A program made the position numbers and the translations under genes. From a virus (taxonomy: Duplodnaviria > Heunggongvirae > Uroviricota > Caudoviricetes), in the IMG/VR virus record IMGVR_UViG_3300014720_000027, positions 16,466 to 80,465 of that record: 64,000 bases of DNA. One strand, 5' to 3'. The notes beneath the pieces were generated by a model. That model searched no databases. It saw only the letters and a list, made by a program, of their open reading frames with translations, and was not told the DNA's origin. This document shows positions 11,190-59,429 of the stretch, piece after piece (the stretch's first letter is position 1; every line of letters begins with the position of its first letter).

Positions 11190-11362
11190 ATTTACTCCTA
11201 TGATCTATATATTAATAACATATCAGAAGATATAGTTTTTTGATTATGTTCAAAAAATAATTTATATTTTTTAGAGTCCATGTATTGTTTACAATCTAAA
11301 TGCAGTTCATGAGAATGAGTCAATATAAATACTGTACTTACTTGTTCTGGTCATTTTTAACT

Positions 11363-12124: not shown

Positions 12125-12125
12125 A

Positions 12126-21554: not shown

Positions 21555-21967
21555 TCTAATATTCCTACTACAATTGATGTAAAGTTTTTAATTTGTTTTT
21601 GGCTAATTTTAAATCCTGCCAACCTTAATTCGTCTATAATAATGTCTGTACTTACAGCGCATTTTACAGAAGAACCGGCTGGATATATAGCCTCATTAAA
21701 ATCTGTTAATGTAATTGCTCCAGTTGAAAGCATATGTGATAATAACTCTATATCAGTAAAGTAGAGTATAATTTTACCGCCTTTTTTTATTTTCGAAGCA
21801 ATCAGCCTAATTACGTCGGGAACTTCCTTAATATTAAAGGAGCACAAAATGTCATCTACGACAATTTCAGAAGCTTCTCCGTTATCTACTATAATATCCA
21901 AAGAAGACAGATTATTTATCCATAATCTATCTTGATCTTCTTGGTTATGACTAAAGACTATTCTCAT
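21551..21967 (-). CDS. Small methyltransferase-like or truncated domain protein
   Basis: KKGGKIILYF and ILCSFNIKEVPDV resemble the post-motif-I to motif-III region of class I MTases. Motif I is lacking. Confidence 0.3.
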   Translation of the reverse strand: MRIVFSHNQEDQDRLWINNLSSLDIIVDNGEASEIVVDDILCSFNIKEVPDVIRLIASKIKKGGKIILYFTDIELLSHMLSTGAITLTDFNEAIYPAGSSVKCAVSTDIIIDELRLAGFKISQKQIKNFTSIVVGILE

Positions 21968-34870: not shown

Positions 34871-36317
34871 AGCCTTCGTCGTCTTCTATGTTTTTACTAT
34901 TTAATTCATTTCTCGTTGGGCCCTCAGTTAATCTAGCGTATGCCCCATCCATTCTCACATTGATATAGTCACCATCCTCCAGACCTCCGCCGTGACGAGA
35001 TACAACAGGTACGAGTTTTCTATTATAAGATTTCTTACAGCCGTTTTCAATGTCTTCTGCTTGTTCTTCTGCTGATTTAGTTTTAAAGATAGTAAAACTG
35101 GTACACAGCCACACCAATCTATCCGATCCCGATGCAACATCAGATGATTCTTTAGTTACCCCATCACGATTAAGCTGAACAAAACTTAAACAAGGAACGT
35201 CGAATTTGACACAAAAATTATGTAATTGAGTAATAAGGAATCCAAGGGCCTGATATTCTTGCATATCTTCAATACTATTAGAACTCATTAATTTTAAGTA
35301 GTCGTATATAATAATACAGTCTTTTGTTTTACCATTTTCATCAAAGCCTACATATTGATAAATCCATTTTCTCATGGATGAAAGAATAGATTCAAAACTT
35401 TCCCCGGCGATACTTAGGTAATGATAAGGAATTTCTTTTATTTTATTTCCCGCATCTATCACTTTTTTGGTTTGAATGTGACTTTCGGCAAATTTGCCGG
35501 TGGTCAAAATATCTAATGGAACATCTGCTAGATTAGCTAAGATTCGATTGTAATGATCGTTCTTGCCCATTTCGGTATCTAGCATTAGGACTGGTATTCC
35601 AAGCTTGCCAGCCGCATGTAAGGCGACAGCATCAGCGAATAAACTTTTTCCTGTCTTTGGTCTAGCTCCAACTAAAGCAACGCCACCCCTTCTACAACCC
35701 CCGCCGATACAGCGGTCAAATTCAGCAAAGCCAGTGCTAATACCTAGCATGTCAGTAGGGTTGTCAATTAGGTGTTGAATATACTCTTCAATATCTTCTC
35801 CGAGCACCACGGGCTTGTTTTGATCGGTTCTATATGTTTTGAAAATAATATCTAAAATCGGACCTTCGACCTTAGACAGTAAATCATTAATAGATTCTTC
35901 GCCGGTAATTTCCGATAAGTCTTTATCGCATAGGCCAATTGTTTTTCTTAAATCTCTAGCCAGTTTTAACTTGGCTAATTTAGCCGCAAATCCGGCTATA
36001 TTTTCTCTACTAACCGGAAAATTAAATAAAGATCGGATAAAAGAAATTTCTTCAGAGTTAGATAAAAGATGATACAATCCGAGTTCATTAGCCTTGGATA
36101 AAATAGAAGATAATTCTATCTTAGACCCAGCCATTGCCACTTCTTTTAAACAAGAAAATAGCCCCTGATTTAATGTGTCTGTAAAATATTCTGATTCTAC
36201 AAAATCTATTTCTAGTAAACAGTCTAATCCATATTGAGCAATGCCGCATAATACGGCGCGCTCTGCTGCGAAGTCTACAATCTCTTTTTGTTGCGAATTT
36301 TTTGGAAATCTTCCCAT
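34833..36317 (-). CDS. DnaB-family replicative helicase
   Basis: DnaB N-terminal domain, Walker A GARPKTGKSLFA, and RecA-like C-terminal domain. Adjacent to the primase. Confidence 0.8.
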   Translation of the reverse strand: MGRFPKNSQQKEIVDFAAERAVLCGIAQYGLDCLLEIDFVESEYFTDTLNQGLFSCLKEVAMAGSKIELSSILSKANELGLYHLLSNSEEISFIRSLFNFPVSRENIAGFAAKLAKLKLARDLRKTIGLCDKDLSEITGEESINDLLSKVEGPILDIIFKTYRTDQNKPVVLGEDIEEYIQHLIDNPTDMLGISTGFAEFDRCIGGGCRRGGVALVGARPKTGKSLFADAVALHAAGKLGIPVLMLDTEMGKNDHYNRILANLADVPLDILTTGKFAESHIQTKKVIDAGNKIKEIPYHYLSIAGESFESILSSMRKWIYQYVGFDENGKTKDCIIIYDYLKLMSSNSIEDMQEYQALGFLITQLHNFCVKFDVPCLSFVQLNRDGVTKESSDVASGSDRLVWLCTSFTIFKTKSAEEQAEDIENGCKKSYNRKLVPVVSRHGGGLEDGDYINVRMDGAYARLTEGPTRNELNSKNIEDDEGFEHESTGDISSL

Positions 36318-40171: not shown

Positions 40172-40665
40172 TGCTTCCTCTTTGATAATTCTAACATTAT
40201 ATCTGACATTCTTTTCATGTTCAATGCTTTATTCTCTAAAGATTGAAATCTTAGCGCCGATTCGTTTTTTAAGTCGTTTAATTTTGCTGCTAGTGGATTT
40301 TCTCTAATAGCAAGATTATATTTTTTTTCATATTTTACAAAGTTATCGCCATAGTTGTCTATTACTGGAGCAACCATATAATTAATACTATTGGCGGCAT
40401 ATTCAATAATAGCTTTTAATTTATTGCTGGACTGATTTATATAGTCAGAATATCCAGATAAAATAAATGAATTCGCTATTAAATCCTGCCCGGTCATTTC
40501 TTTTAATTCGTCATAGCTTAGATTTAATATTTCTTCGCATTTATCATGGTTGAATCTTGTTATATCTAGTTTGTTACTAGATATCCATTCTTCAATTTGC
40601 TTCATGAATTTTAACACATCATCTTGATTCAATTTGCTGTCTCCAAAATTCTTCTTTGTCGCCAT
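40168..40665 (-). CDS. Hypothetical protein (165 aa)
   Basis: ORF only. Confidence 0.4.
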   Translation of the reverse strand: MATKKNFGDSKLNQDDVLKFMKQIEEWISSNKLDITRFNHDKCEEILNLSYDELKEMTGQDLIANSFILSGYSDYINQSSNKLKAIIEYAANSINYMVAPVIDNYGDNFVKYEKKYNLAIRENPLAAKLNDLKNESALRFQSLENKALNMKRMSDIMLELSKRKQ

Positions 40666-41029
40666 GTTTAAAAATTAAGATACTGATATTATTTTGTTCG
40701 CACCATCTAATCTTATCATTGTCTCTTTTTTTAGACTTTAAAAAATCTAACTTTTTTTTGTGGAAAAAAGTAGAGTGAGTATAGTGCTGTTCTCCGTGAG
40801 CCTCTACTATTAAATTTCTGTTAGGTATATAAAAGTCCGCAGTTAGTTCTTTTTTCTTTTTCCAGTCTCGACTACCAACCAACTCTACTTCTTCCATAAT
40901 AACATCATAAGGGAAAACATCTCTTAGAAACTGTCGGACTTTATTGTGAAGTCCCGACTTATTCTCAAGAGCATTAGACCCTCTGGGCTTCCAATCGTAT
41001 TCTTGATCGTCTAAACCTATTATTTTCAT
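40619..41029 (-). CDS. Small Vsr/DUF559-like endonuclease (putative free-standing homing endonuclease)
   Basis: LIVEAHGEQHY matches the xIExDGxxH DUF559/Vsr-fold signature. Lies immediately upstream of the recA-like gene. Confidence 0.45.
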   Translation of the reverse strand: MKIIGLDDQEYDWKPRGSNALENKSGLHNKVRQFLRDVFPYDVIMEEVELVGSRDWKKKKELTADFYIPNRNLIVEAHGEQHYTHSTFFHKKKLDFLKSKKRDNDKIRWCEQNNISILIFKHGDKEEFWRQQIESR

Positions 41030-42120
41030 AGCATTAATTTAATTTCTTCAACCAAGGCGCTGTATACAGAGGGATGTTCCTTTAAAAAGAAATAGGCAGC
41101 AGGGCCACCGTTTACTCTACACTTCTTTAAAGCGTCTTCTGGTTCTTTATATGTATTATCTAAATTAAGCTCTATGTCATCTGGAAAAATAGAATTTAGA
41201 AGTTGTGGCTTGTTATATAAGAATGATATTGTCATCCACGCACCGGATTGAGTAATTAACCCACCCTCAAGGCCCATAATTAAAGCCTCCTGTACTTTGT
41301 CTACGCCTTGACCATATCGTATCCATGACTGACATTCTGCGCCCGGCGGACCCATAGAGGAGCATAAAACTTTCCAGTTGATAGCTTGTCCAATCTGTTC
41401 TTTATCTTGCTCCCAAGGCTGAACAGATTTTACTTCCATTCTGGTGTCTGCCTGATATTGTATTTTTACGCCACCATCGGCCATTTTAGAAGCTCCATAG
41501 CCACTAGTGTTTGTGATCATATGTGTGATCAAAATCATCAGAGCTTTTTGATTGGGAACGATTTGCCCCATTTTTTTAGTAAAGTCTGAAAGAATCTTTG
41601 GTAGGCCCGGTCTTGTCATACCATTAATTTCTTGCTCTAAATCTCTTTGTGGAATTAAAGAAGAAATTGAATCTATAATACAGACACATCCTTCATTTTC
41701 TTTGGCGGATACTAATTTTGCCGCAATGTCTAAAAATTCTTCAGCGCTTAATGGCTTTTCAAAGGCCCGGATTACTGTTACTTTTTCAGGATTTAATTCA
41801 GAAACCTCAAAATTCATTTCTTTTAATCGGCCTTCAACATCTAGATATATTATATGCCTATTTTCTTTTTGACAATTAGCCGCAATTTGCATTGCCACTG
41901 TGGTTTTTCCAGATTTAGCAGCGCCAGAAAGCATCACCCAACTCCCCTCTTTAATGCCGCCGCTTAACGCAACGTCAACAATAGGGCTGACAGAAATAAC
42001 TTTATAATCTTTTCTATTGTATAAAAGTTCTGTACCTGTTTTAATAACATCTCCATATTTTTTTGCAATTTCTGTTAATGTGTTTGTTGATTCTGTCTTA
42101 GCTATTTTTGTCTTCGCCAT
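41026..42120 (-). CDS. RecA-superfamily recombinase/ATPase (RadA/UvsX-like)
   Basis: LSGGIKEGSWVMLSGAAKSGKTTVAMQ (Walker A in RecA/RadB/KaiC style). HIIYLDVEGR follows. Confidence 0.6.
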   Translation of the reverse strand: MAKTKIAKTESTNTLTEIAKKYGDVIKTGTELLYNRKDYKVISVSPIVDVALSGGIKEGSWVMLSGAAKSGKTTVAMQIAANCQKENRHIIYLDVEGRLKEMNFEVSELNPEKVTVIRAFEKPLSAEEFLDIAAKLVSAKENEGCVCIIDSISSLIPQRDLEQEINGMTRPGLPKILSDFTKKMGQIVPNQKALMILITHMITNTSGYGASKMADGGVKIQYQADTRMEVKSVQPWEQDKEQIGQAINWKVLCSSMGPPGAECQSWIRYGQGVDKVQEALIMGLEGGLITQSGAWMTISFLYNKPQLLNSIFPDDIELNLDNTYKEPEDALKKCRVNGGPAAYFFLKEHPSVYSALVEEIKLML

Positions 42121-44875: not shown

Positions 44876-46069
44876 CTAATATTTTTCGCTAGCTTGTTCA
44901 AATAATGATGGATTTAGCGAAGAATCACTAGCCTGTATTTGTGTATATGTCAAAAAATCATTATTAGCGTTTGAATAGCTTACTTCGTATTCTACTATGC
45001 TGCCATCGGCATTTCCTCCTGTTTGGTTAAATGATGTTAGTTTATTTTTATTTCCAAGATTCCATATAAAAAATTTAATATTACCATCTCCCGTTGGTAT
45101 TCCCGCTACAATACAAATTCTTTGATTATTATTAGAGTTTAAAAACGCGCTATTTACAGGATCAATATTAACTTGCGGTAATCGCCGCGCGGTAATGGTA
45201 AATGAGCATGTTACTTGTATTGGCAAAGCCACGCTTTTATGCCAATTAACCTTTTCTCCCTGTTGTATATCTCCAATAATAGAAGACTCTAAATACTCTA
45301 GAGATAATTCTATTTGTATATTTCTAATACCAAATATTTCTTGCCCATTATAAAAATTATTAAAATCAGTTAAGGCTGTAATAGAGCTTGGAAAAACAGA
45401 TAGATTATTATATACTTGCCCCCTTTTTAATAATTTAGGAGTTGTAATCGGATTATCGAGCCCAGTAATAGTATCTAATTGAAAATTATTAGAAGCTATT
45501 TTTTGTCTGGTCTTGTTAGACAAAGATATTGTTTCTGAAAATATGCCCTCTGTTGATAACTCGTATGATAAGGATGTTAATAAACAGTTGGGCAAACTTA
45601 TCACATCTTGCGCAGTCCCAGAATTGCCAACTAGCCCATTTAACAAGTCTGTTTCATCCGTTGCCAGTAAAGTAAAATTATATTCTGGAATATTTTTAGC
45701 TTTGACAGTGTTAGCATCGGCAAGTTCCCAACCGCTTAATTTTAAACCAAAGATTTCTGGTTTAAGAAAAAATGTATTTCCGTAGTTTAAAATGTTTCTG
45801 TCTGTGGAATATAAATAATTAGAACTTAATTCCGACCAAAATATATCTTTATTTGACAAATATCTCTCGATATTAATCTCATTAGATGGCGGAATTCTTA
45901 ACATATCATAATTCTGAGTTTTACCAATATTTTGGATATTGATAGTTTCTATGGAAGAATTTATCCCGACAGACTGAACGCCTGATAAAAAATAATTGGT
46001 TATCGCACTATTTTTAGTAATGCTGTTTAATATTAAAGCCAATGAGCCAAAAAAAATTCTATTCGCCAT
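44876..46069 (-). CDS. Hypothetical protein (397 aa), possibly virion structural
   Basis: Asn/Ser/Thr-rich beta-strand-like composition. Translationally coupled (TAATG) to the RNR gene. Confidence 0.45.
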   Translation of the reverse strand: MANRIFFGSLALILNSITKNSAITNYFLSGVQSVGINSSIETINIQNIGKTQNYDMLRIPPSNEINIERYLSNKDIFWSELSSNYLYSTDRNILNYGNTFFLKPEIFGLKLSGWELADANTVKAKNIPEYNFTLLATDETDLLNGLVGNSGTAQDVISLPNCLLTSLSYELSTEGIFSETISLSNKTRQKIASNNFQLDTITGLDNPITTPKLLKRGQVYNNLSVFPSSITALTDFNNFYNGQEIFGIRNIQIELSLEYLESSIIGDIQQGEKVNWHKSVALPIQVTCSFTITARRLPQVNIDPVNSAFLNSNNNQRICIVAGIPTGDGNIKFFIWNLGNKNKLTSFNQTGGNADGSIVEYEVSYSNANNDFLTYTQIQASDSSLNPSLFEQASEKY

Positions 46070-48273
46070 TATGTTTCACAGGCTCCGCCAGCACAGCTTA
46101 ATTCTTCTTGTAGCTTTGTATTATCTTCGTTTTCTATGAGCAATGTATAATCCACATCTTTATACTCCCTCTGAAGCTCTGTCCATAACTTATAGTTATA
46201 CACATCTTTCATTGCGTATGTCAATTTCTTAATATCTCCATCGAAATAATTGACTGCATACTTAGAGCATCTTTTTACCCAGTCTATTTTTGAACTTCCT
46301 TTAATTTTATTCCCTGTTCCTAGTAAATCTGAGCACGCCCCCCATAAATTATCCTCCCATAAAACTAAGGCTGTTTCAATTAATCCACTTACAAACATTA
46401 CGCCTTCACCGTAATACGAAAGCATTTCACTCGGTAAATATACTGTAGTAAACGGAGCTTGTGGATAATCTTTATCTCCAGTAGCCGAAAGAAGGCTCAC
46501 CCCACAGAAAAATTCCCTATTAGAATAAATAAAATCCGCAACCTGTTCCCATTCATCATTTTGAATATTTATTGTATTGCTTACATTATGCGTTAGCCAA
46601 GGCTGTGTACAAAGATCGGGATTTTTTCCCCTCATTACCCAATTTTGTTGAGTAGATTTGACAATTTCTAATAAACTAATTGCCGTAGTTTGATTTTTAG
46701 TCTTAGAACCGTCTGGAACTTCGACACAAAAACTAATCACATCATCTGTATCATTAGCTGACCATACAGAGGATTCACATGCTCTTGTATTAATCTTTTT
46801 AAATAATCTATATACATTTTCCATCTTATTAGCTTGAACTCGTCTAATATAACGTTTTGCGTGATGTGGATGGATGCCACTGGCAGTCCCTAAAACACAT
46901 GAAGACGAACCTTCCGGCTTCACGCATGTTGTTCTAGCGGCAGGATTAATACCTATCAATGTGGCAATTTTTTTATTAGCCGATTTTACAATTTCTGCTC
47001 CATTACGCTGAACTTTTGGATTTAAACAAATTTCAGGTTTTTCTAACCAGCCTGTGCCACTAACACCCAATAAAGCTTCTCTCTTAAAAATACGTTCGGA
47101 TACTTCTCCTAAATATGGAAAACTAGTAAAACCCGCTTGTAGCGTTCCAATAATAGCCGCCGCCTTACAAGCTTCATAAAAATCTTCTTCCGTTTTAACC
47201 TTAGAGCAATTGATAGTAGAAAGGTTGCACGCTTGCCAGCCTGAAAGTCCAGTTTCAATATCTATAGCATAAAACCCTATTTCCACACATGGATTAACTA
47301 ATAATTCAAGAGAATCTGACCATATAAAGCCGGGCTCTCCGAATTCTTTAACAGACTCTATCAGCTTATCAAATTGCTCTTTGGTTGTTTTATCTCTCAA
47401 TAATAAGGCTGAATTGTTTGAGCGACCCCTTTGCGGATTTTCAACAAACCAGTTGCCAGTTTTTGCAGTAACCATCTCATTATCGTCTGCTGAAAATATG
47501 CAAATAGTTGCCGATCTTCTTACTCCTCCGGAAATAACAGCATCGCTAGCGTGCATGATAATATCATATGCCTCAACAGGCTTTAATCGTCTTAAACTTT
47601 CAGACGAAAACTCATTTCTTGCAATAGCAGCGTCTAAGATTTTTTTGATATTTTTAAGAGCTTTTTTTAAAGGCTCCGGACCCGGTGCTTTTCCTACCCC
47701 TCCTGCTACCGGCGATCCAGCCGCTCTAATATTGGTATAATCAAAGACTACATTATACCCAGTATATTCTGGAAATAAATCTTGTTGATCAAAATAAGAT
47801 GATATTAAAACACCAACAGCATCAGACCACCCTTCTATACTGTCTTCAATAATAAATTTTTTGTTTTGTTCTGGAGCTACCGACGACAGAGGAGGAAGTT
47901 TTGCTATGTGGTGCTTCTGGACAGAAAACCCTGTTCCGCATCCGCACAGAAGCAGATACATACATTCTTGAAAAAATCTTAGACGGTCTACATACGAAGA
48001 AGTACAATTGAACATTCTGGAATTATGAGAAAATATTGGATCTCCACCAAACTGTAATGCTCTTTGAGACCCTAGCACTTTTTTCTTGTGCATCATGTCA
48101 TACGCCCAGTCGATCTCTTCGTGTAATTCTTCTGGGGCGTTTTGATATTGTCGATGCATCATATTTCTAACTCTATCATTTGCCTCTTTCCAAGTTTCTC
48201 TACGCTTTTCATTTGGTAGATACCGGGCGTATTTAGAAGTAAATGTATAGTCCATTAGAGATTTTAGGCTCAT
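46069..48273 (-). CDS. nrdJ: Class II (adenosylcobalamin-dependent) ribonucleotide reductase, monomeric NrdJ/RTPR type
   Basis: 734 aa. N-terminal MSLKSLMDYTFTSKYARY...RETWKEANDRV typical of NrdJ. Cys-containing active-site segments (NPCVEIG). Confidence 0.8.
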   Translation of the reverse strand: MSLKSLMDYTFTSKYARYLPNEKRRETWKEANDRVRNMMHRQYQNAPEELHEEIDWAYDMMHKKKVLGSQRALQFGGDPIFSHNSRMFNCTSSYVDRLRFFQECMYLLLCGCGTGFSVQKHHIAKLPPLSSVAPEQNKKFIIEDSIEGWSDAVGVLISSYFDQQDLFPEYTGYNVVFDYTNIRAAGSPVAGGVGKAPGPEPLKKALKNIKKILDAAIARNEFSSESLRRLKPVEAYDIIMHASDAVISGGVRRSATICIFSADDNEMVTAKTGNWFVENPQRGRSNNSALLLRDKTTKEQFDKLIESVKEFGEPGFIWSDSLELLVNPCVEIGFYAIDIETGLSGWQACNLSTINCSKVKTEEDFYEACKAAAIIGTLQAGFTSFPYLGEVSERIFKREALLGVSGTGWLEKPEICLNPKVQRNGAEIVKSANKKIATLIGINPAARTTCVKPEGSSSCVLGTASGIHPHHAKRYIRRVQANKMENVYRLFKKINTRACESSVWSANDTDDVISFCVEVPDGSKTKNQTTAISLLEIVKSTQQNWVMRGKNPDLCTQPWLTHNVSNTINIQNDEWEQVADFIYSNREFFCGVSLLSATGDKDYPQAPFTTVYLPSEMLSYYGEGVMFVSGLIETALVLWEDNLWGACSDLLGTGNKIKGSSKIDWVKRCSKYAVNYFDGDIKKLTYAMKDVYNYKLWTELQREYKDVDYTLLIENEDNTKLQEELSCAGGACET

Positions 48274-48821: not shown

Positions 48822-48882
48822 GGCTTATACCTCCATAAAAAGGGGGCAATTTCTTGCCCCCAAGAGTAAATATTGACTCAGA

Positions 48883-49668: not shown

Positions 49669-50133
49669 TTAGATCGAAACTTTATATTGTTCTGCTAATT
49701 TATTTTTAATTTTGTCTAATCTGTTTTTTATAGACTGTCTAGACACACCCTGTTTATCGGCCAACTCTTGTGTTGAATAATTTTCTATGTATTTTAAAAT
49801 AAATATATTTTTTTCTTCTGCGTCTAAGCAGTCAATCATGTCAGTAAAAAACGTGTAATCTTTAGAATCTTCTTTATCTTGCATTGGCCAATTTTTTTTA
49901 ATTTTTTTACCTCTTAAATATAACAGAATTTTAAACTTTAAACAATTAGCTAGATAGGTTGTAAATTTCATCTGGCCGGGGTGATTTGGATCATATTTTT
50001 CAGAAGCTTCCCAAGCCGATTCTAATTTAAATGATTTAATTTCATCTCTGGAAACAAGCCCCTTGTATCGTTTTGCTATAGAATTCATAATACTAATACA
50101 ATCTTCGTTGTTTAACACTTCTTCAAAAGTCAT
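49669..50133 (-). CDS. Sigma-70-family RNA polymerase sigma factor (region 2 + region 4, ECF/late-sigma-like)
   Basis: Region 2-like (DEIKSFKLESAWEASEKYDP...FTTYLANCLKF) and region 4 HTH (YSTQELADKQGVSRQSIKNRLDKIKNKL). Confidence 0.6.
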   Translation of the reverse strand: MTFEEVLNNEDCISIMNSIAKRYKGLVSRDEIKSFKLESAWEASEKYDPNHPGQMKFTTYLANCLKFKILLYLRGKKIKKNWPMQDKEDSKDYTFFTDMIDCLDAEEKNIFILKYIENYSTQELADKQGVSRQSIKNRLDKIKNKLAEQYKVSI

Positions 50134-51464: not shown

Positions 51465-51938
51465 TCAGCTATTCGATAAATTCCAAGCTAGCCCAACAAG
51501 ATCATTTTTCAGAGATTCTATTTCTGGTTTAGATAGAATGTGGTCTAGGGGGCCAATAGATGATTCAAACAGTTTTTGAATTTCCTCAGATAATCCTGTA
51601 TATTTGCCGCTTAAAGAATCTTTAAAATTGTTTTTAAGCGACTCTGTGTATAAATCTATTAACTGTTGACTTGTAATATTTTTTTCAAAATATGATTGTA
51701 GCCTTTTTGAAAACTCAAGATTAAACAGGGCTAAGTTTAACCGGTCTTCCTTGTCGGTAACTAATTCTGCTAATTTTTTACTTTTTTCTATTGTTGTATC
51801 TGCCGGTTTTTCATCTACCACCTGAATACTGTCTTTAAAAATAGCAGATTTAAACTTTTGTAGATATTCTGGAGCCCTATGTCCCAATAAGCCTATTAGT
51901 ATTAAAATCGCGCCTAAAATAAATCTATAGTCTTTCAT
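51465..51938 (-). CDS. Secreted or membrane-anchored hypothetical protein (157 aa)
   Basis: N-terminal signal/TM segment FILGAILILIGLLG. Confidence 0.4.
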   Translation of the reverse strand: MKDYRFILGAILILIGLLGHRAPEYLQKFKSAIFKDSIQVVDEKPADTTIEKSKKLAELVTDKEDRLNLALFNLEFSKRLQSYFEKNITSQQLIDLYTESLKNNFKDSLSGKYTGLSEEIQKLFESSIGPLDHILSKPEIESLKNDLVGLAWNLSNS

Positions 51939-51940
51939 TA

Positions 51941-52228
51941 TTATCCTTTTTTAACGAATAGAGGAAATACTTCTTCTAATTTTGCATTAGCCTCATTCAA
52001 ATTTAAAGACTGGCACATTGATTTAAGAACTTCCCATTGCTGTACAATGCTAGACAATGTAGGCTCTTTAGATAAATCTATTATGCCTGTCTCTCCTTTA
52101 ACACCTGTTTCTTGCTTTTTATTAGCATCCGAATTCGACATTTTACTAAAAACCTTTTTAAAATCGATGAAATAGCTTAAAATAATGAACCCGCCAACTA
52201 TCAATGATCCTATTTGAATAATATTCAT
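51941..52228 (-). CDS. Small membrane protein (about 95 aa; start probably the internal Met)
   Basis: TM segment IIQIGSLIVGGFIILSYFI. The start at 52228 (MNIIQ...) follows the stop of the newly noted small ORF. The ORF-track start at 52267 would overlap that ORF. Confidence 0.4.
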   Translation of the reverse strand: MNIIQIGSLIVGGFIILSYFIDFKKVFSKMSNSDANKKQETGVKGETGIIDLSKEPTLSSIVQQWEVLKSMCQSLNLNEANAKLEEVFPLFVKKG

Positions 52229-52232
52229 ATAT

Positions 52233-52412
52233 ATTTTACTCTGTTTTACGCAAAGAGTCGCCAACAATCCATGCTGACAAAACCGTGACAGCTAAATCTA
52301 CTTGGTCTTGTGATAGTTTAAATCCTAATCCATCGTTTCCAACGGCTACAACAAGAGCAGCAAGAGCGGCCCAAAATCTACGAGACTGTAACAAGTTTTG
52401 TGTTTTAATCAT
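52233..52412 (-). CDS. Unannotated small membrane protein (59 aa, below the ORF-track cutoff)
   Basis: ATG at 52412 overlapping the upstream stop (ATGATTAA). Translates MIKTQNLLQSRRFWAALAALVVAVGNDGLGFKLSQDQVDLAVTVLSAWIVGDSLRKTE with one hydrophobic helix. It fills an otherwise empty 137-nt gap. Confidence 0.4.
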
Positions 52413-52740
52413 TTTTTTCTACCTCTTTAAAAAGACGCTCTATTTCTGTTGAAGACAAATTCCAACTAATTAATTCTCGATATAAATCTGATGGCTTAAT
52501 ATCCGTGCCAAAACACTCCTTTGATATATGCCTACGCAATATAATTTTTTGTATTAAATTTGGCTTACGAAGCATATTTGCTCTTTCTTCTTTAGAGTTT
52601 CTGCACTCATATACCATTCTTATTATATTAATAATCAATCCGGCTATCATTATAACTGTTAATGGATCAAAAGCGTATCCATAATTTCTTGTTAATTTTT
52701 GAGTTATTTTATTTGCTATTGACTCGCTTTTATTTAGCAT
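52405..52740 (-). CDS. Small membrane-associated hypothetical protein (111 aa)
   Basis: Hydrophobic segment LTVIMIAGLIINIIRMV. Confidence 0.35.
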   Translation of the reverse strand: MLNKSESIANKITQKLTRNYGYAFDPLTVIMIAGLIINIIRMVYECRNSKEERANMLRKPNLIQKIILRRHISKECFGTDIKPSDLYRELISWNLSSTEIERLFKEVEKND

Positions 52741-53266
52741 TTTTTACAATCTCTTTGAATGACTCTTTTGACATAAATCCATCGAATTTATATAATTTGT
52801 TTTTAATCCAAATTTCGAATCTAGGAGCAAAAGTGTTGGATTCTAATTCTACCACTTTCCACCCAGAAGCTTCAACCCACGGCTTTATTTCTTTCTTCCA
52901 TTTAGCACATGGACCACATCCGGGTAAAGTGTAAAAATCAATCGTTCCATTTTTTATTTCTTCTATGGCTTGTAAATTTGATGTGGTTTTTTTTCTAGCT
53001 TTGCAATCTTCTCCTGCTGGGCATGGTGTTTTATGGCCATCTCCATGTATAATATAACCTGTGCCACCGCATTCGCAGGTAATTTTCTCATCTTCGTCTA
53101 GTTTTTCATCTAAAATTTTTTTCTCAGCTTCGGAAATAGAGGAATTAATGGTTGTTTTTGTTTTTTCAATAGTTTCTAATGTTGGCCCACTATTTACTTT
53201 TTTGAATAAACCAATTGCTACAGATATTGCAATAATAATAAAAATAATTTTATCTTCGTTTTTCAT
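52730..53266 (-). CDS. Membrane-anchored thioredoxin-like thiol-disulfide oxidoreductase with Cys-rich linker
   Basis: N-terminal TM (IIFIIIAISVAIGLF). Zn-ribbon-like CECGGTGY...CPAGEDC. Thioredoxin active site LPGCGPCAKW (CGPC). Confidence 0.55.
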   Translation of the reverse strand: MKNEDKIIFIIIAISVAIGLFKKVNSGPTLETIEKTKTTINSSISEAEKKILDEKLDEDEKITCECGGTGYIIHGDGHKTPCPAGEDCKARKKTTSNLQAIEEIKNGTIDFYTLPGCGPCAKWKKEIKPWVEASGWKVVELESNTFAPRFEIWIKNKLYKFDGFMSKESFKEIVKNAK

Positions 53267-55282
53267 TTAAAGCACCTCGTTTAAAGCCCATTTAATTTTT
53301 TGCGCGGGAAAACCATCTACATTGCTTAAAGCCCAAGTGTTACCCTGAGAGATTATAGTTTGTGCTACAGATTCACGAACCCAAAATGACCCATCTGGCT
53401 GGCCTAATCTTTTAGGGCCATTGTTCCAAACGCCCCAACTATTTTGTATTAAAAATAAGGTCTCGTTAAACAACTGTCTTGTGTCATCCATTGCTACCCA
53501 AGCCATTGCATGAGCCCATGAGCCTGATCTAGCGGCTATTCCATTTTTATCTCTTGTAGAAGAAAAACCTAAATTACTACAGGCAAAAATACCATATCCA
53601 TTAAACAAAGCATCTCTAGCTTCATCTATAGATCTAATATTAGACGCTGTTTTTACCTGATTATTTTTAGCTTCGATAGTTATTTCAGAAGGAGTTCCTG
53701 ATCTACCCCAAGAAGCAGCCATCCTTCCATTGTATACGCTAAGGTCGTGCCTTCCGTACTTTTTGCGAAGAACTATGCCGCCTTGCTTTGTTAAATATCT
53801 TACAGCGTTTTCGCAGGTCATACCTTGTCCAGAATGACCCCTGTTTCCATAAATGCCCTCCGTGGCTGATCTTACAATAAATGATTCAGAGTCGCCATTG
53901 ATAATCTCGGTTGATCTGGTGATATCTACGGCATTTCTGGCGGCATGAGAAACACAATTTTTTAAAACCATTCCACAGCCGTCTATAAATGTATGGTTGT
54001 GGTTTTCTACACCTATATCAAAAACTTCTTCATGTGGTCCTTCTTGAAATTCTATTTTTGTTATAGGCATTGCTAAATACTTATCATCTCTCCAGAGATT
54101 TCTAGAGGTTCTGTCCTTTTCCCAAGAAATTGAATAAATAATTTTATTAGTTTTATTAGTTCTTTTATCTGTTCTTTGTCTTTGGTTTAAGCTTGGAGTA
54201 TAACCATTATTTAAAGCCCATATTCTAACGCCAAATACTAAAGATGGGCTAGTATTTTCCAAACATTGTCGAGATCCTTTTGTATAACCATCAGAATCTA
54301 AAATTCCTTGAATAACATCTTCGTTTATAGCCCAGCTTGGAAGAACTTTATAACCAGAGCTATCGTAAAAATAATGTCTAAATAGATTAAACAATTTTTC
54401 TTGCTTATGAGTATAAACCTTTCTAGCTTTTCTGCTTATTTTTGGGCAATGGAAATAAGAATTCCAAGTAATATTTAATAGGTTTAACGCATTACAAAGC
54501 CTTTTTTCTATTTCTGGTTCGTCGGTAGTACACCCCCATTCGAGCGTTTTAGATGATACTTTTGCATGACCATCGCCTAAAAATAAACCTATCAACCATC
54601 TAGTTTCTTTATCCCCCATACACATTAGCATATCTTCTGGTATTTTAGAATCTATTTTAAAATTAATTGGACAAAGCAAATAGTCTGCTTCTGTTAATTC
54701 TTTAGCCGAAATTAGCTCAGCTTTTCTAGAAGCGAAAACTGCGTGTCTTTTATTATTTTCACTTTCTAAAACAGATCGTGAAGAGCCCGGACTATATCTT
54801 CTACGACATTTTGTATTATTATCAACAAACTCTCCAAAACGATAAGCTAATAATTTATGATCAGAAGTAACTTCTAATGGCAACCCCCCTTTTGTGTAAA
54901 TCTTTAGAATTGGATTATTAGATTTTTTTACCATTGTAGATATAACTGTAGTTATACTACCATCACCAGCATAAACTCTGTCTCCAATTTTAATATCCTG
55001 AATCTTTTTTACAAAATCTGGCCCAAGGATAAGACCATCTTTTTTCCGACAATCCCCGGTGACTTGCCTCTCGTTAAAAGCTTTTGGATCAAATCTTAAA
55101 AGATTTTTAAAAAGAAGGGCCATTTGGCCTTTTCCAGAACCAGCGATTGGTCCTGCCGCTGCCCCAAAAAAAGGATGCTTTGATTCAGATAAAAGTTTTT
55201 CGCGCCCCTTTTCGTCACAAACAGAACCAATAAAACCATTTTTATAGGCGTTTAACAGTTGTAAAGGGGTGTTGAAAATCAT
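53267..55282 (-). CDS. Papain-like (C1-type) cysteine peptidase precursor interrupted by an intein
   Basis: Exteins: oxyanion Gln and catalytic Cys (ERQVTGD|C...|CVSHAARNAV), His (SWAHAMAWV) and the papain-family Asn/Trp motif FLIQNSWGVWNNG...GSFWV. An ~365-aa intein lies between N-extein residue 77 and the catalytic Cys. Confidence 0.7.
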   Translation of the reverse strand: MIFNTPLQLLNAYKNGFIGSVCDEKGREKLLSESKHPFFGAAAGPIAGSGKGQMALLFKNLLRFDPKAFNERQVTGDCRKKDGLILGPDFVKKIQDIKIGDRVYAGDGSITTVISTMVKKSNNPILKIYTKGGLPLEVTSDHKLLAYRFGEFVDNNTKCRRRYSPGSSRSVLESENNKRHAVFASRKAELISAKELTEADYLLCPINFKIDSKIPEDMLMCMGDKETRWLIGLFLGDGHAKVSSKTLEWGCTTDEPEIEKRLCNALNLLNITWNSYFHCPKISRKARKVYTHKQEKLFNLFRHYFYDSSGYKVLPSWAINEDVIQGILDSDGYTKGSRQCLENTSPSLVFGVRIWALNNGYTPSLNQRQRTDKRTNKTNKIIYSISWEKDRTSRNLWRDDKYLAMPITKIEFQEGPHEEVFDIGVENHNHTFIDGCGMVLKNCVSHAARNAVDITRSTEIINGDSESFIVRSATEGIYGNRGHSGQGMTCENAVRYLTKQGGIVLRKKYGRHDLSVYNGRMAASWGRSGTPSEITIEAKNNQVKTASNIRSIDEARDALFNGYGIFACSNLGFSSTRDKNGIAARSGSWAHAMAWVAMDDTRQLFNETLFLIQNSWGVWNNGPKRLGQPDGSFWVRESVAQTIISQGNTWALSNVDGFPAQKIKWALNEVL
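53957..55051 (-). mobile_element. Intein with LAGLIDADG-type homing endonuclease block, inserted at the peptidase catalytic Cys
   Basis: Begins with Cys (CRKKDGLILGPD...; block B TSDHKLL). LAGLIDADG-like block WLIGLFLGDGHAKV. C-terminal HNHTFIDGCGMVLKN followed by +1 Cys. Boundaries inferred from motifs, roughly +/-10 aa. Confidence 0.65.
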
Positions 55283-55283
55283 T

Positions 55284-56321
55284 TTAGTCTCCTGTAATTT
55301 TTATAATTTCTTTAGCAGAATTTTCCCATGTAAAACGTCTTGCTGTTTCTACACCTGCGTCATTCTTTGAAAATCCTGCTGACTGTTTTAATTTATGAAC
55401 ATCTTTCATGTATTCAATAAGCTGTTCTTTTTGGGTTTCTTTGATTTGAGCCCATAACCCTTGTCCGCGAAACCAGATACCATCTTGTGCAAGCTCTAAG
55501 GAGTCTATATTTATTAATTTGGCATTTTTTTGATTGCAAAATTCGGTATGAGCAGAATAATTAGTGGCAATTACTTGTTTTCCACAGGCCATCAGTTCTA
55601 ATAATTCCAAATTCCACCCTTCTGCTCTAGCTGGAAATACGCCGCAATCAACTTGTCTCATTATATTATACACATTTTTTTGAGTGGGTTGTCTGGGTAT
55701 TAGTTTTATTTTATGGGCAAGTTTACTATTTTTTACCAAATTATCCCAATAAGAATTATCAATAAATGGATTGTGACACATTAGCCAAAGCTCTACGTCA
55801 TCCTGCGGAGAAAACGCTCTGTTAAAACATTCGATTAAAACATCATGACCTTTTCTAATTTCCCACTTTCCACAATTAAAAAAAATAGTTTCTTTTCTTG
55901 TTGAGTTATTTAAATCATTAAATATAAGGTTGTCTACGCCCAAAGGAACGACAGAGTTAGGAGTTTCAATATGGTCTCTTATCACGCGCTGCGCCCATTT
56001 GCTTGGGACAAACAGGTGGTCGCAATGCTTTAAACTTTCTACTTCCTGTTTAGTGAAATGAGTTAATTCGAAAATAGGAAAACCTATTCGTCTTCCCTTA
56101 GTTATCCAAGTGGTTAATTCATGCTGGTGCCAAATTTTTATTTCTACATCGTCTGACTTATATTTTTTATTAAGCCAAAGATTACTTTCTATGTCGGATA
56201 AAGAAGGGTCTATTTGTCCGATTGGATATAGAGAGACATTAGTTAATTTAGCTAACTGTTTAGTAATATGATATCCGGTGTATCCGTAACCAAGTGTATT
56301 AATTGGAGATTGTACGATCAT
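55284..56321 (-). CDS. GT4-family (GT-B) glycosyltransferase
   Basis: LELMACGKQVIATNYSAHTEF donor-binding motif. Confidence 0.6.
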   Translation of the reverse strand: MIVQSPINTLGYGYTGYHITKQLAKLTNVSLYPIGQIDPSLSDIESNLWLNKKYKSDDVEIKIWHQHELTTWITKGRRIGFPIFELTHFTKQEVESLKHCDHLFVPSKWAQRVIRDHIETPNSVVPLGVDNLIFNDLNNSTRKETIFFNCGKWEIRKGHDVLIECFNRAFSPQDDVELWLMCHNPFIDNSYWDNLVKNSKLAHKIKLIPRQPTQKNVYNIMRQVDCGVFPARAEGWNLELLELMACGKQVIATNYSAHTEFCNQKNAKLINIDSLELAQDGIWFRGQGLWAQIKETQKEQLIEYMKDVHKLKQSAGFSKNDAGVETARRFTWENSAKEIIKITGD

Positions 56322-57134
56322 TTATATTTCCTCTTGCGCGTTTAAAAATACCGGAATATATTTTTTATCTTCGCCAGCAAAATGTATAAATCTATTTGTT
56401 TTTTGCTGCAATATTTTTTCATCAGACTGTTGAACTAAATGGTGGCTTAAATCAACTTCCATAGGATGAAATATTTCTATTTTGGTTATATTGCAAAATG
56501 CGTCATATATACATTCATCGCATATAAATTCGTATTTTTTTTTACCATGCATGTCTTCATATTTAGCTAATAAATTTTTTATATGCTGATCGTTTCTTAT
56601 ATCTAAAAAATAATCCCTGCAAAAATTATCAAATTTGTCTACAGTTTCTAAGTTCATCTTTATTAGTCCGGCATTAGTATCATATAATGATGCATCGTTT
56701 AAATTCATAACCTGTTTTAAAAATTCTGTTTTTCTTTTTATGTGAAAAAACGATATCTCGTTTTCTCTAGAAAGCATGTTATGCATAAGATGAAAACTGC
56801 TTGGCATTTCTTCAAAAACATTTTTTGATTTATTTGGTATTAAATCTAAATCCATCCAAATTATTTCATCATAATTTTTTGTTGTTAAAAATCCATATAC
56901 ACTACATAGGGTTGCTGGAGCCCAAACACACGGATGATAGTTACCGTATCTTCTTATTTTATTATAAATATCATTGAACGGAGTTGAGTTATCGATAACC
57001 GAAAAGTCACAATTAATATACTCACAATATTTATCTAAATTGCACAGGGCTCTAATTTGCCAACGGCACAATCCCTTGTATAATAAAGAGTGCCCATTTG
57101 AAAAAGCTCCTGTAATTATAATTCTTTTTGTCAT
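56322..57134 (-). CDS. Putative nucleotide-diphospho-sugar transferase (GT-A-like)
   Basis: IIWMDLDLI DxD-like motif. Confidence 0.35.
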   Translation of the reverse strand: MTKRIIITGAFSNGHSLLYKGLCRWQIRALCNLDKYCEYINCDFSVIDNSTPFNDIYNKIRRYGNYHPCVWAPATLCSVYGFLTTKNYDEIIWMDLDLIPNKSKNVFEEMPSSFHLMHNMLSRENEISFFHIKRKTEFLKQVMNLNDASLYDTNAGLIKMNLETVDKFDNFCRDYFLDIRNDQHIKNLLAKYEDMHGKKKYEFICDECIYDAFCNITKIEIFHPMEVDLSHHLVQQSDEKILQQKTNRFIHFAGEDKKYIPVFLNAQEEI

Positions 57135-58063
57135 ATGCTTTTTTCTAGCTTGGTAATAAAGTCATTAGCAAAATAATCTCCGTGCAAAAAATCTTTATTC
57201 ATATTTTTTAGATATTCATGACACTGTAATATCTTTTCTATGTTAACTATATCTTCTGGACCTTCATAATATAAGGGATAGTCTTCTCCTAAATATTCTG
57301 TAGTTGCTGGTAATTTATTAGTTATGATGGGGGTGTTTCTTATCATAGGTTCGATAATTCCATTATTAGCAGAGGTAGCCCACATGCACACATATACTAA
57401 TGTTTTACTTAAATGTTCGTCATATTCTAAATTATCTAATCTTGTTGGTTCATGAATCATATAATCTTTACCCGCAAAGCAGCTAATTCTTTGCCATATT
57501 TTTAAATACTCTTCGACAAATCCCGGCATACAATATGTTTTATATTTTATATGGTTTATTTTTAAAAAATTACATATATTAGAAAATTCTTCAAGGTTTC
57601 TTAGCCAATACCCAAGTTGAGTTATTGATTTATTTTTTAAAAATTCATCAGGACTCCAGCATATTTGAGTTTTTTCCGTGGGGTGTTTTACTGAAAATGT
57701 CGGTATATTTACTTTCAATTTATTTAAAAGTTCTTTAATATCTAATAATAAACTTTCTGATAAAGCGATCAAACACATGCATTTTTTTAAAGATTTTTGA
57801 AAATTTGATTGTTCGAATAAAAAATCTAATGAGTTTTTTTTATCAAATTCTGGCTTATTGTGTCTTGGTATATGCAAAATTCCTATCCAAGGAAAATCAT
57901 AGTACGAGCTGTCTTTATTTCTATTCCATATAAATTTTCTTTCTACAAAATCGTCCAAAAAAATTCCATTATTCGAATGAAATGGTTTTAAACACCTAAT
58001 TGCATAAGACCATCCAGACCTATGCATTGAAAATCCTTCGCATTTTGATAAATTTAATTTCAT
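57131..58063 (-). CDS. Hypothetical protein (310 aa), glycan-cluster member
   Basis: ORF overlap-coupled to its neighbours. No motif recognised. Confidence 0.35.
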   Translation of the reverse strand: MKLNLSKCEGFSMHRSGWSYAIRCLKPFHSNNGIFLDDFVERKFIWNRNKDSSYYDFPWIGILHIPRHNKPEFDKKNSLDFLFEQSNFQKSLKKCMCLIALSESLLLDIKELLNKLKVNIPTFSVKHPTEKTQICWSPDEFLKNKSITQLGYWLRNLEEFSNICNFLKINHIKYKTYCMPGFVEEYLKIWQRISCFAGKDYMIHEPTRLDNLEYDEHLSKTLVYVCMWATSANNGIIEPMIRNTPIITNKLPATTEYLGEDYPLYYEGPEDIVNIEKILQCHEYLKNMNKDFLHGDYFANDFITKLEKSI

Positions 58064-58872
58064 CCAAGCTTATATCCCAAAAAGGATTCATAGCAACCTG
58101 TGTCACACATCCAGCAAAGAAAATCTACTCTTTTTCTTTCTTTTGTTTCTCTAAGAAACTTCGATTTTAGTAAAAGTAAATCAGCGTTGTTGTCATGCTT
58201 TTCCTTAGAAAAGAAGCCCATTTCATAAAACCAGTTGCCAAATGTCGTATCATTAATTTCTGGAATTGGAATAAATTCAAAAACATTTAGCCTCTTTGCC
58301 CATACTAATTGATTTTCTTTATTAATTAGACCCGGGCATATTGGTGATAGTGTTCTAGGCGTTAATGTTGCTGTGAAGCCCCCATTAGAATTATAGTAAT
58401 ATCCATTAAAAATGGACCCGTATATCAGTGGCACTGTGACTTCATCTGTATACTCCATCAAACTATTTTTATTCCAATCAGAACCTATCAATCTCCTATG
58501 GTATGTTTGTATTAGCTCTGCATCAATTTGATTATCATGATTACAGTTATAGATCGCGGTATGATCTCCTATGAAACCATTGGCCGATCTATATAGGTTA
58601 TTTAAAGACAATACCCGGGCCAAATAATCGTCTGGTATTAAATTGTTCTCACATAAAAACCCAACCAGCAGCGACTTAGTAGATGTTGGCACTTCGTTAA
58701 GCTCTACGGGTTTAATATTTACTACAACTCCGAGTTCTTTAGCCTGTTTTTCCAAGGATTCTAAGCATGGCCTGTAGCCTATTCCCCTGTCATCTTTGTT
58801 TGATGTTGAATAAATCGGCGGAACTTTTGTTTTATTTTGAATAATAAAAAAATCTATCATATTAATTTCCAA
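58060..58872 (-). CDS. Hypothetical protein (270 aa), glycan-cluster member
   Basis: ORF only. Confidence 0.35.
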   Translation of the reverse strand: MEINMIDFFIIQNKTKVPPIYSTSNKDDRGIGYRPCLESLEKQAKELGVVVNIKPVELNEVPTSTKSLLVGFLCENNLIPDDYLARVLSLNNLYRSANGFIGDHTAIYNCNHDNQIDAELIQTYHRRLIGSDWNKNSLMEYTDEVTVPLIYGSIFNGYYYNSNGGFTATLTPRTLSPICPGLINKENQLVWAKRLNVFEFIPIPEINDTTFGNWFYEMGFFSKEKHDNNADLLLLKSKFLRETKERKRVDFLCWMCDTGCYESFLGYKLG

Positions 58873-59429
58873 TTTGTGTATCCGTGTGCTATTGCTTGTA
58901 AATTATTTTTATTTGCAAATTCGTCTACGGCTTGTTTCACACTCTCCCACCCATAATCATGTCCACCCATGACTCCATCATATTTTAATTTAGGAAACCA
59001 AACATTCAAATCTTTTTTAACAGATTCGTAGTCGTGAGATGCATCTATATAAACAAAATCTATGCTTCCATCTTTAAAGTTTTCTGCCGCCATTTCAGAT
59101 GGTTGTGGTATTATATTTAGTGATTTGTTATAGTCTATAGTGTTTTGTAAGAAAATTTTAAAAAGATCTTTAAGAGTTGGATCGTCTTGATGCTCCCAAG
59201 ATCCTTTAAAATGATCAACGGCAAAAAAGTTTATTTGCTTATTATATTTCTGTATTAGCTCACACATAGCAACTGTGCTGCGTCCCTTAAAACATCCTAT
59301 CTCTACAAAAACAGCCCCGTCTTTTGCGGAAGAAACCATTTCCTCGTACAGCTTAACATCATTACTATCAAACCAGCCTTCTATATTTTCATATTGCATA
59401 AAAAATCCTCCCTTGGCATATAATAACAC
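58857..59429 (-). CDS. Class I SAM-dependent methyltransferase (paralog of the ORF at 13013-13585)
   Basis: FVEIGCFKGRSTVAM motif I and YIDASHDYESV / MGGHDYGWESV mirror the other MTase (FAEIGVFKGEYS / YIDGDHSYEG / MCGHDY). Confidence 0.55.
   Translation of the reverse strand: MLLYAKGGFFMQYENIEGWFDSNDVKLYEEMVSSAKDGAVFVEIGCFKGRSTVAMCELIQKYNKQINFFAVDHFKGSWEHQDDPTLKDLFKIFLQNTIDYNKSLNIIPQPSEMAAENFKDGSIDFVYIDASHDYESVKKDLNVWFPKLKYDGVMGGHDYGWESVKQAVDEFANKNNLQAIAHGYTNWKLI

Follow-up and report, generated by a model that had tools for sequence, protein, structure and literature searches.

The subject of this study is a 64,000-nucleotide stretch of DNA (the window) from a virus of the class Caudoviricetes, corresponding to positions 16,466 to 80,465 of the IMG/VR record IMGVR_UViG_3300014720_000027. 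On its minus strand, directly behind a gene for a papain-like cysteine protease, lies a gene for a 178-residue protein with a hydrophobic N-terminus, a Cys-rich motif, and a thioredoxin domain. An earlier note, made from the letters of this DNA, had described the protein as a membrane thioredoxin and proposed that it folds putative Cys-rich virion proteins of the same phage. We followed up these claims computationally. The features are given below, with positions counted from the first letter of the window.

52730..53266, minus: 178-residue open reading frame (ORF) comprising anchor, four-Cys motif, and minimal thioredoxin domain; from the ORF listing
53204..53248, minus: hydrophobic signal-anchor or transmembrane (TM) helix, residues 7-21 (IIFIIIAISVAIGLF); from hydropathy and an AlphaFold2 helix at residues 3-19
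53003..53077, minus: family-defining four-Cys motif C-x-C-x-G-x-G-x-I-x-HGDGHKTPCP-x4-C, residues 64-88; four Cys at least 90% conserved in 77 sequences
52733..52954, minus: minimal thioredoxin fold, residues 105-178, beta-alpha-beta-beta-beta-alpha; from AlphaFold2, Foldseek, and Pfam matches of relatives
52907..52918, minus: CGPC active site, Cys117 and Cys120; both Cys invariant in 77 family members
52823..52825, minus: Pro148, at the place of the thioredoxin cis-proline before strand beta-3; invariant in 77 sequences
53267..55282, minus: 671-residue precursor of a 306-residue C1 papain-like cysteine protease (exteins 55052-55282 and 53270-53956); from homologues, AlphaFold2, and Foldseek
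53957..55051, minus: 365-residue LAGLIDADG intein, Cys78...Asn442; from Pfam Intein_splicing and LAGLIDADG_3

The 178-residue ORF is a real gene, as had been proposed; it opens with ATG, and its strand is minus. It begins 0 nt past the stop codon of the upstream 671-residue gene, a Shine-Dalgarno sequence (GAGGTG) lies 7 nt 5' of the ATG, and the 3' end overlaps the next gene, encoding a 111-residue protein, by 11 nt. Cys residues occur at positions 64, 66, 82, 88, 117, and 120. They are spaced as C-E-C...C-P-AGED-C, followed by LPGCGPCAKW (sequence CECGGTGYIIHGDGHKTPCPAGEDC), in exact agreement with the CxC...CPxxxxC linker and active site that had been read from the letters. The 18 close homologues of the protein are all metagenomic. 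On the opposite (plus) strand, a perfect sigma-70 consensus (TTGACA-17-TATAAT, 12/12) is found at 52768-52796, inside the 3' end of the thioredoxin ORF and antisense to the genes; promoter-like sites in the region as a whole were not more numerous than expected from shuffled sequence.

AlphaFold2, applied to the homologue alignment, modelled the C-terminal domain with predicted local distance difference test (pLDDT) values of 74-89 over residues 105-177. The result is a trimmed thioredoxin domain of about 75 residues, without helix alpha-2. A strand at residues 107-112 is followed by a helix starting at residue 117, where the CGPC sequence sits, and Pro148 directly precedes the strand at 148-153. 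Foldseek matched the model in the PDB almost exclusively to thioredoxins (probability 1.00), the best match being the periplasmic thioredoxin SoxS (3dml, E = 7e-4). The matched proteins are thioredoxins of about 100 residues, and the TM-scores, normalised to the target, were 0.5-0.64. The structure matches of the domain in BFVD were viral thioredoxins.

Sequence profiles gave less for the window protein alone. Pfam Thioredoxin_2 reached E = 0.068 (14 bits vs. a cut-off of 27), and PHROG and NCBIfam scans returned sub-threshold matches only. A PDB sequence profile search yielded only DsbG and thioredoxin matches, all non-significant, with a CGPC variant of DsbG as the best one. In the Pfam check suggested in the earlier note, the window protein thus stayed below the cut-off, and of its relatives, 39 of 77 matched PF00085 Thioredoxin at E<=1e-3 (best E = 4.6e-12) and 33 matched PF13098 Thioredoxin_2; PF08534 Redoxin was matched by two only. 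Across these 77 diverse sequences, the two active-site Cys and Pro148 were the only invariant positions, and together with the four well-conserved motif Cys they show that the motifs did not arise by chance. In 15 homologues, CxPC, the Pro of 'AP[WR]FE', and the motif residues were all invariant. The dipeptide between the active-site Cys varies in close relatives (GP, AP, PP, IP, or KP), and distant relatives mostly have WCGPC or WCAPC. Sites of the CGPC/WCGPC and CxPC kind belong to the reducing or isomerising thioredoxin-fold type (Trx, TlpA, ResA), not to the DsbA-type oxidases. The fold assignment is secure because the model, the Foldseek matches, the conservation among homologues, and the relatives that pass Pfam thresholds all support it. 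We consider it nearly certain that the protein has a thioredoxin fold with an intact active site. The CGPC segment fits this fold, and the description of the product as a thioredoxin-fold CxxC protein with an N-terminal anchor was upheld.

The linker ahead of this domain, labelled Zn-ribbon-like in the earlier note, corresponds to a conserved four-Cys module, for which that label is plausible. The consensus across the family is C-x(1,2)-C-x-G-x-G-x-I-x-HGDGH[KR]TPCP-(C). AlphaFold2 predicts a beta-hairpin at residues 70-80 within it (pLDDT 70-80), and the module is not covered by any Pfam, PHROG, or NCBIfam model. When 1.84 billion cluster representatives were searched with a profile, 578 family clusters (at 50% identity) were found at E<=1e-3, of which 123 reached E<=1e-10. 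The motif also occurred in 129 IMG/VR loci. Among the best 149 representatives, 112 carried motif and thioredoxin domain, 21 the motif only, and 16 the thioredoxin domain only. For 53 distinct IMG/VR proteins, the corresponding numbers were 19 with both and 34 with the motif only. Cys-rich tails that end in cationic amphipathic sequences were found as other C-terminal attachments of the motif. In a relative with the same synteny, whose protease is 60% identical, a motif-only protein of 107 residues stands exactly at the place of the thioredoxin gene. Because of this motif-only protein at the same position, we regard the thioredoxin domain as a C-terminal addition to an older partner protein. 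It is an optional putative effector, acquired by the motif protein in some lineages.

In 185,579 cellular genomes, the exact motif was matched eight times, each time beside the phage protease, and a scan for close relatives revealed none. The eight contigs, of metagenome-assembled genomes (MAGs), came from a search with a degenerate motif pattern; six of them are from Planctomycetota. We found no description in the literature of this architecture or of the protease and motif gene pair. Judged from its sequences, this is a large, exported, virus-restricted phage family that was previously unannotated.

The N-terminal TM helix proposed earlier was confirmed by a Kyte-Doolittle mean of about 3.2 for residues 7-21 (15-residue window). 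Export-type N-termini, with a hydrophobic segment, a net positive n-region, and an acidic stretch behind, were present in 142 of 149 relatives. Lipobox-like sites (LAGC, LSGC, LTGC) occurred in 21 of the 149, thioredoxin-bearing members included, and many of the 149 had textbook AxA cleavage sites. The family thus combines an export signal (a cleavable Sec signal, a lipobox, or, in the window protein, a predicted anchor that stays uncleaved) with the motif and a variable C-terminal part. In four Planctomycetota MAG loci, the motif proteins are lipoproteins with a coiled coil and a cationic C-terminus. Because the family carries export signals, we infer by homology that the thioredoxin domain of the window protein probably faces the periplasm. 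The periplasmic placement made in the earlier note is supported in so far as relatives have Sec signal peptides or lipoboxes; the flanking charges of the window protein itself are ambiguous.

The partner gene was found as described, directly upstream in a tightly packed unit and with a papain-like fold of its product; the intein in it is not mentioned in that description. AlphaFold2 modelled the spliced protease with a predicted template modelling score of 0.82. Its best Foldseek match was xylellain (3ois, E = 1e-9), followed by cathepsins B, L, and K at E of about 1e-6. Zymogens were among these matches, and an N-terminal segment resembling a pro-region aligned with the cathepsin zymogens. 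Gln73, Cys78, His226, and Asn249-Ser-Trp were kept in 27/27 protease sequences of 26-92% identity. The catalytic Cys is the only Cys universally conserved in this set; there are no conserved structural disulfides. Pfam Peptidase_C1 did not match the protease, which falls below its detection. Homologues of the spliced sequence fall into more than 1400 clusters; they mostly have 305-310 residues and about 60% identity, and they occur on contigs of up to 167 kb.

Of the IMG/VR motif loci, 76 have at least 1 kb of upstream sequence; in 72 of these, tblastn placed the protease immediately ahead of the motif gene and in the same orientation. It also precedes the motif gene in 8/8 MAG loci. In most AT-rich loci, the two genes are 2-40 nt apart; most GC-rich loci have a wider gap, of about 160-630 nt. 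Protease identity across the linked IMG/VR loci spans 26-84%, and the linkage holds in AT-rich and GC-rich phages. That the motif family and the protease are linked is hardly open to doubt. The GC-rich IMG/VR proteases (loci L045-L095) carry an N-terminal TM helix. GC-rich pairs on MAG contigs (L096-L103) were binned mostly to Planctomycetota (Pirellulaceae, Planctomycetaceae, Thermoguttaceae), and in the GC-rich locus L047 an integrase adjoins the pair.

So tight a pairing might mean that the motif protein is an inhibitor, chaperone, or anchor of the protease, comparable to the staphopain-staphostatin operon, and that the thioredoxin domain is secondary. The order of protease and small partner is nearly strict across the whole identity range, and the only constant part of the partner is a small Cys-rich module. 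However, the partner is exported and the protease of the window lineage has no signal; PDB sequence profile and Foldseek searches revealed no likeness to known cysteine-protease inhibitor folds, and the protease already possesses its own pro-region-like segment. We consider this explanation unlikely. The same linkage bears on the idea of a general auxiliary thioredoxin, exported for host periplasmic redox homeostasis or cytochrome maturation and having no specific phage substrate. Thioredoxins are common auxiliary genes of phages according to the literature, and the viral BFVD matches agree; host TlpA, ResA, and CcmG have a similar architecture. An opportunistic host-derived gene would not be expected to show such conservation of the four-Cys motif and of the protease linkage, and the family is essentially absent from cellular genomes. 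An unspecific role of this kind is, thus, quite unlikely.

The catalytic Cys directly follows the intein as its +1 residue (Cys443 of the precursor); the boundaries are GD|C...VLKN|C. The intein scored E = 5e-7 with both Intein_splicing and LAGLIDADG_3, and it has the features of a class 1 intein: N-terminal Cys, C-terminal Asn, +1 Cys, splicing blocks, and an endonuclease domain. Intein-free protease homologues of 306 residues are 92% identical to the spliced sequence. Among the protease relatives, long alleles fit one intein (663-692 residues) or possibly two (1012 residues), and the N-terminal reads of L027 and L029 suggest the same insertion site. A cysteine protease is an unusual intein host. 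We also considered whether the thioredoxin is tied to the intein through redox-controlled splicing. This was rejected: intein-free proteases also precede the thioredoxin gene (in L016, and in P0027/P0008, which apparently share one 4690-bp contig), and the domain is exported.

Downstream of the thioredoxin gene, the array continues with small membrane proteins and ends at a hairpin.

52405..52740, minus: 111-residue protein with a single TM helix in its centre; conserved at position +1 in 13 loci; no family match
52236..52412, minus: 58-residue protein with two hydrophobic segments, weakly holin-like; conserved at position +2 in 10 loci
51941..52228, minus: 95-residue protein whose TM helix is N-terminal; conserved in 20 loci in the vicinity of the motif gene
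51465..51938, minus: 157-residue protein that combines an N-terminal TM helix with a helical domain; in other phages it occurs fused to the four-Cys motif
48842..48861, minus: strong intrinsic-terminator-like hairpin; 8-bp stem with six GC pairs, then TTTTT

The 157-residue protein aligned end to end with the N-terminal 152 residues of a fusion in L048 (28% identity, E = 2e-5). Another homologue is a TM/lipoprotein family whose genes precede the protease in loci of a different type (hhalign 93%, E = 2.4e-7). Fusions of a half like this protein with the HGDGHKTPCP motif and a Cys-rich tail were found at L048:1416-2117, L037:5521-6627, and L038:3409-4275; the tails of the latter two end in the cationic sequence ...RRWLRR. 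These fusions link two separate genes of the window cluster, the 157-residue gene and the motif gene.

The hairpin closes the gene array ahead of the gene for a class II, B12-dependent ribonucleotide reductase (RNR; 46069-48273, minus, 734 residues, weakly detected by Pfam). The RNR of a related phage (L009:15001-18099) has 1032 residues, which an insertion such as an intein may explain. With this gene 4.5 kb downstream and, in 16 of 41 loci, RNR genes at a distance of three to five genes from that of the motif protein, the thioredoxin might be a membrane-tethered, NrdH-like reductant that faces the cytoplasm and serves the phage RNR, as does T4 NrdC. The KK sequence after the TM helix is compatible with such an N-out/C-in topology. 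However, relatives, thioredoxin-bearing ones too, have cleavable signal peptides and lipoboxes, motif-only proteins fill the same position in the locus, and between the unit and the RNR gene stands the strong terminator. Known RNR reductants are, moreover, small soluble proteins. We judge a role in nucleotide reduction to be very unlikely.

From these data, we propose the following mechanism. The single-pass protein would insert with the motif and the thioredoxin domain on the periplasmic side of the inner membrane. Its CGPC site would perform thiol-disulfide exchange, most likely reducing or isomerising, as in thioredoxin, TlpA, ResA, and DsbG. The substrates would be envelope-located partners, most probably the lone catalytic Cys of the protease and/or the motif cysteines, which would be kept in the right redox state. 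In an oxidising compartment, the lone protease Cys would be vulnerable, like the enzymes protected by DsbG. The membrane-protein context of the gene suggests that the step served is late and envelope-directed, possibly of the lysis type. We put forward this protease- or lysis-related redox role at the host envelope tentatively, as a reading that may well prove wrong.

Several observations weigh against it. The N-terminal half of the AlphaFold2 model has low confidence. The anchor of the window protein is flanked by MKNEDK before and KK after, which is neutral in a positive-inside analysis and leaves the orientation ambiguous. Many family members lack the thioredoxin domain, so this domain is not essential to the module. 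The protease of the window lineage has no signal peptide, so the pair would meet only after membrane permeabilisation or by some other route. We saw no DsbD/CcdA-type electron donor in the window, and a periplasmic reductant would require one. The holin match of the 58-residue protein is weak (PHROG 9987 'holin', E = 6.6e-4; PHROG 4712, E = 4.7e-3); PHROG and Pfam scans gave no further match for neighbouring small membrane proteins of several locus types. No canonical endolysin, muralytic enzyme, or spanin was recognised among the window ORFs scanned. PHROG scans of 20 further window ORFs did not reveal an endolysin either; the window covers less than half of the likely genome, as related contigs reach 158 kb.

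Possible features of a lysis cassette in the cluster are the weak holin match and the i-spanin-like architecture of the 157-residue protein; neither a muralytic enzyme nor a lipoprotein was found there. They invite a different reading, in which the motif protein would act in lysis, either like a spanin or by disrupting the outer membrane. Its motif would oligomerise or form disulfide links, and the thioredoxin domain would be a built-in catalyst that makes host DsbA and DsbC unnecessary. Motif proteins are anchored in the inner membrane, secreted, or lipoproteins, and some have a coiled coil and a cationic C-terminal tail; the i-spanin-like protein is conserved nearby and is motif-fused in some phages, and a neighbour is holin-like. 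In contrast, the 157-residue protein contains no Cys, the window cluster offers no lipoprotein partner, there is no spanin or holin profile match apart from the single weak one, and the near-constant protease partner is left unexplained. A spanin-like function appears doubtful.

In its broadest form, our proposal of a redox role at the envelope would make the protease, the four-Cys motif protein with its thioredoxin or cationic effectors, the TM-helical protein, and the small two-TM proteins parts of an unrecognised phage system for breaching the envelope, that is, for lysis. We regard this as a rather speculative extension. If true, a cathepsin-type protease and a disulfide reductant would attack envelope proteins, taking the place of muralytic endolysins and spanins or adding to them. 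This would suit hosts with protein-rich, disulfide-cross-linked envelopes; GC-rich versions of the system occur in Planctomycetota MAG contigs. The envelopes of Planctomycetota are cystine- and proline-rich.

We then considered the function originally proposed, in which the protein is a dedicated periplasm-facing foldase that adds disulfides to the Cys-rich products of 2791-5248, which it takes to be virion proteins. The Cys counts had been overstated. The 696-residue ORF (2791-4881, plus) contains 31 Cys (4.5%), not more than 40, and the 124-residue ORF (4874-5248, plus) contains 16 (12.9%), not about 20. The mean Cys content over 71 window ORFs is 2.2% and three other ORFs reach 4.0-4.4%; only the 124-residue ORF is really extreme. 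The two ORFs do share the window with the thioredoxin gene, as the note said of their genome segment, but they lie 48 kb away on the opposite strand.

The 696-residue protein has an N-terminal CYCCDKKDxGPCDLC cluster and no Pfam or PHROG match. Its gene follows ORFs of 1830, 510, and 1044 residues without family matches, possibly as part of a tail module. Only three homologues were found among 5.8 billion proteins (33-51% identity), and a scan of IMG/VR revealed no relative. In the three homologues, 17 of the 31 Cys are invariant, as compared with about 19% of all columns. These Cys matter structurally, yet nothing connects them to the thioredoxin gene. The 124-residue protein matches Pfam DUF6171 (E = 1e-7) and PHROG 13558 (E = 6e-17), and it is probably a metal-binding CxxC protein. 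Weak relatives of it stand about 5 kb upstream of the motif gene in the GC-rich loci L065, L076, and L079.

The foldase model, thus, has in its favour a real thioredoxin domain and a Cys-enriched 696-residue protein with conserved Cys. Against it, the 696- and 124-residue ORFs have neither a signal peptide nor a hydrophobic N-terminus. As they lack an export signal, they are presumably assembled in the cytoplasm, where a periplasmic domain could not act on them; tailed phages build their virions in this compartment. The 129 viral motif loci lack the 696-residue ORF, the metal-binding assignment is the better one for the 124-residue protein, and CGPC is a reductase-type motif. A link between the thioredoxin gene and the Cys-rich ORFs was rejected for want of co-distribution and of export signals. 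The foldase role is largely refuted by distribution and topology, and we consider it highly improbable.

The phage has no close counterpart among GenBank phages: searches with the 178-residue protein (tblastn), 20 kb of the window (megablast), and the spliced protease (tblastn) found nothing. It appears to represent an uncultured lineage, the relatives of which include contigs of 100-167 kb. Replication and transcription genes lie on the minus strand (26022-29456, 33806-36317, 41026-42120, 49669-50133); the phage encodes a DNA polymerase III alpha subunit, about 31% identical to that of the closest cultured phage, a DnaB helicase, a primase, a RecA-like protein, and a sigma-70-family factor. 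Among the replication and nucleotide-metabolism genes, one for a free-standing HNH homing endonuclease (40619-41029, minus) is another mobile element besides the intein. A search of the window for tRNAs was negative. Genes of the glycosyltransferase, methyltransferase, and epimerase types form an unusually long run at about 8600-25650 and 55284-59400 (minus), with GT1-family genes at 22931-25656 and 55284-56321, Methyltransf_24, and an NAD-dependent epimerase. The matching contig L010 contains an exostosin-like glycosyltransferase. These genes suggest that the phage builds or modifies a glycan.

Phage thioredoxins are usually viewed as cytoplasmic helpers of nucleotide metabolism, and an exported family departs from that view. 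The protease belongs to the core genes of an uncultured phage lineage that is widespread in marine and other metagenomes, and its conservation suffices for inteins to reside at the catalytic cysteine. Should the pair act on the host envelope, thiol-redox chemistry and proteolysis would join the phage toolkit for lysis and envelope remodelling through two enzymes with clear active sites. Even if the function is mundane, the four-Cys motif and its protease linkage provide an annotation rule for hundreds of 'hypothetical' phage genes.

Among known systems, TlpA, ResA, and CcmG/DsbE share the order of an N-terminal anchor and a thioredoxin fold with a CxPC-type site and a Pro at the cis-Pro position. 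This fold is extracytoplasmic in the TlpA class and predicted to be so here, where electrons would presumably also be supplied by a DsbD/CcdA-type donor. In contrast to the minimal fold of about 75 residues in the window protein, these proteins have an N-terminal hairpin and a central insert. The phage protein further differs in being virus-encoded, in its four-Cys motif, and in its linkage to a protease instead of cytochrome maturation. The DsbG/DsbC system reportedly protects single catalytic cysteines of periplasmic enzymes. Our proposal applies the same idea, in which a thioredoxin-fold reductant in the periplasm maintains a lone active-site Cys in its reduced state, and DsbG was the best profile match, although a non-significant one; the phage protein lacks a dimerisation domain and is membrane-tethered, and its candidate substrate is suggested by gene adjacency. 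Trx2 (TrxC) of E. coli, a structure of which (7d6l) is among the fold matches, has the same layout of a Cys-rich, probably metal-binding module N-terminal to the thioredoxin domain. It is, however, cytoplasmic and has two CxxC pairs, whereas the phage module is CxC...CPx4C with HGDGH behind an export signal, and the NCBIfam TrxC model (PRK10996) did not match the window protein.

T4 NrdC, NrdH, and the cyanophage thioredoxins are likewise virus-encoded thioredoxin-fold CxxC proteins with an RNR in the same genome. They are small, soluble, and cytoplasmic; the NrdH and glutaredoxin type stands within or next to the RNR operon, whereas the window protein has 178 residues, is anchored, and is separated from the RNR gene by 4.5 kb and a terminator. 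DsbA has a helical insertion and a CPHC-type motif, neither of which is present in the window domain with its CGPC/CxPC site. The E10R-A2.5L-G4L pathway of poxviruses depends on a sulfhydryl oxidase of the Erv1/ALR type and serves, in the cytoplasm, membrane proteins of the virion. What it shares is the concept of a viral redox system for virion disulfides; we saw no Erv1/ALR-type oxidase in the ORFs that were scanned, and a similar role is disfavoured by the distribution of the thioredoxin/motif family and by its topology. The disulfide-linked Rz/Rz1 spanins of lambda and the disulfide isomerisation of P1 Lyz are examples of redox-dependent lysis proteins. They too involve thiol-disulfide chemistry in the envelope and clusters of small membrane proteins, but they rely on host Dsb enzymes or intramolecular isomerisation and involve neither a phage thioredoxin nor a papain-like protease.

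With the C1 papain family (xylellain, cathepsins), the phage protease shares the fold, the Gln-Cys-His-Asn set, and the pro-region-like N-terminus; baculovirus V-CATH is a viral example of this family. It differs in escaping detection by the family's Pfam model, in having no conserved disulfides, in being a frequent intein host, and in its motif-protein partner. The 178-residue protein would, thus, work like TlpA, ResA, or CcmG, or like a DsbG-type periplasmic thioredoxin, but it is a member of none of those families. Its fold is known; what is new is the domain architecture and the gene context of an exported thioredoxin-fold oxidoreductase.

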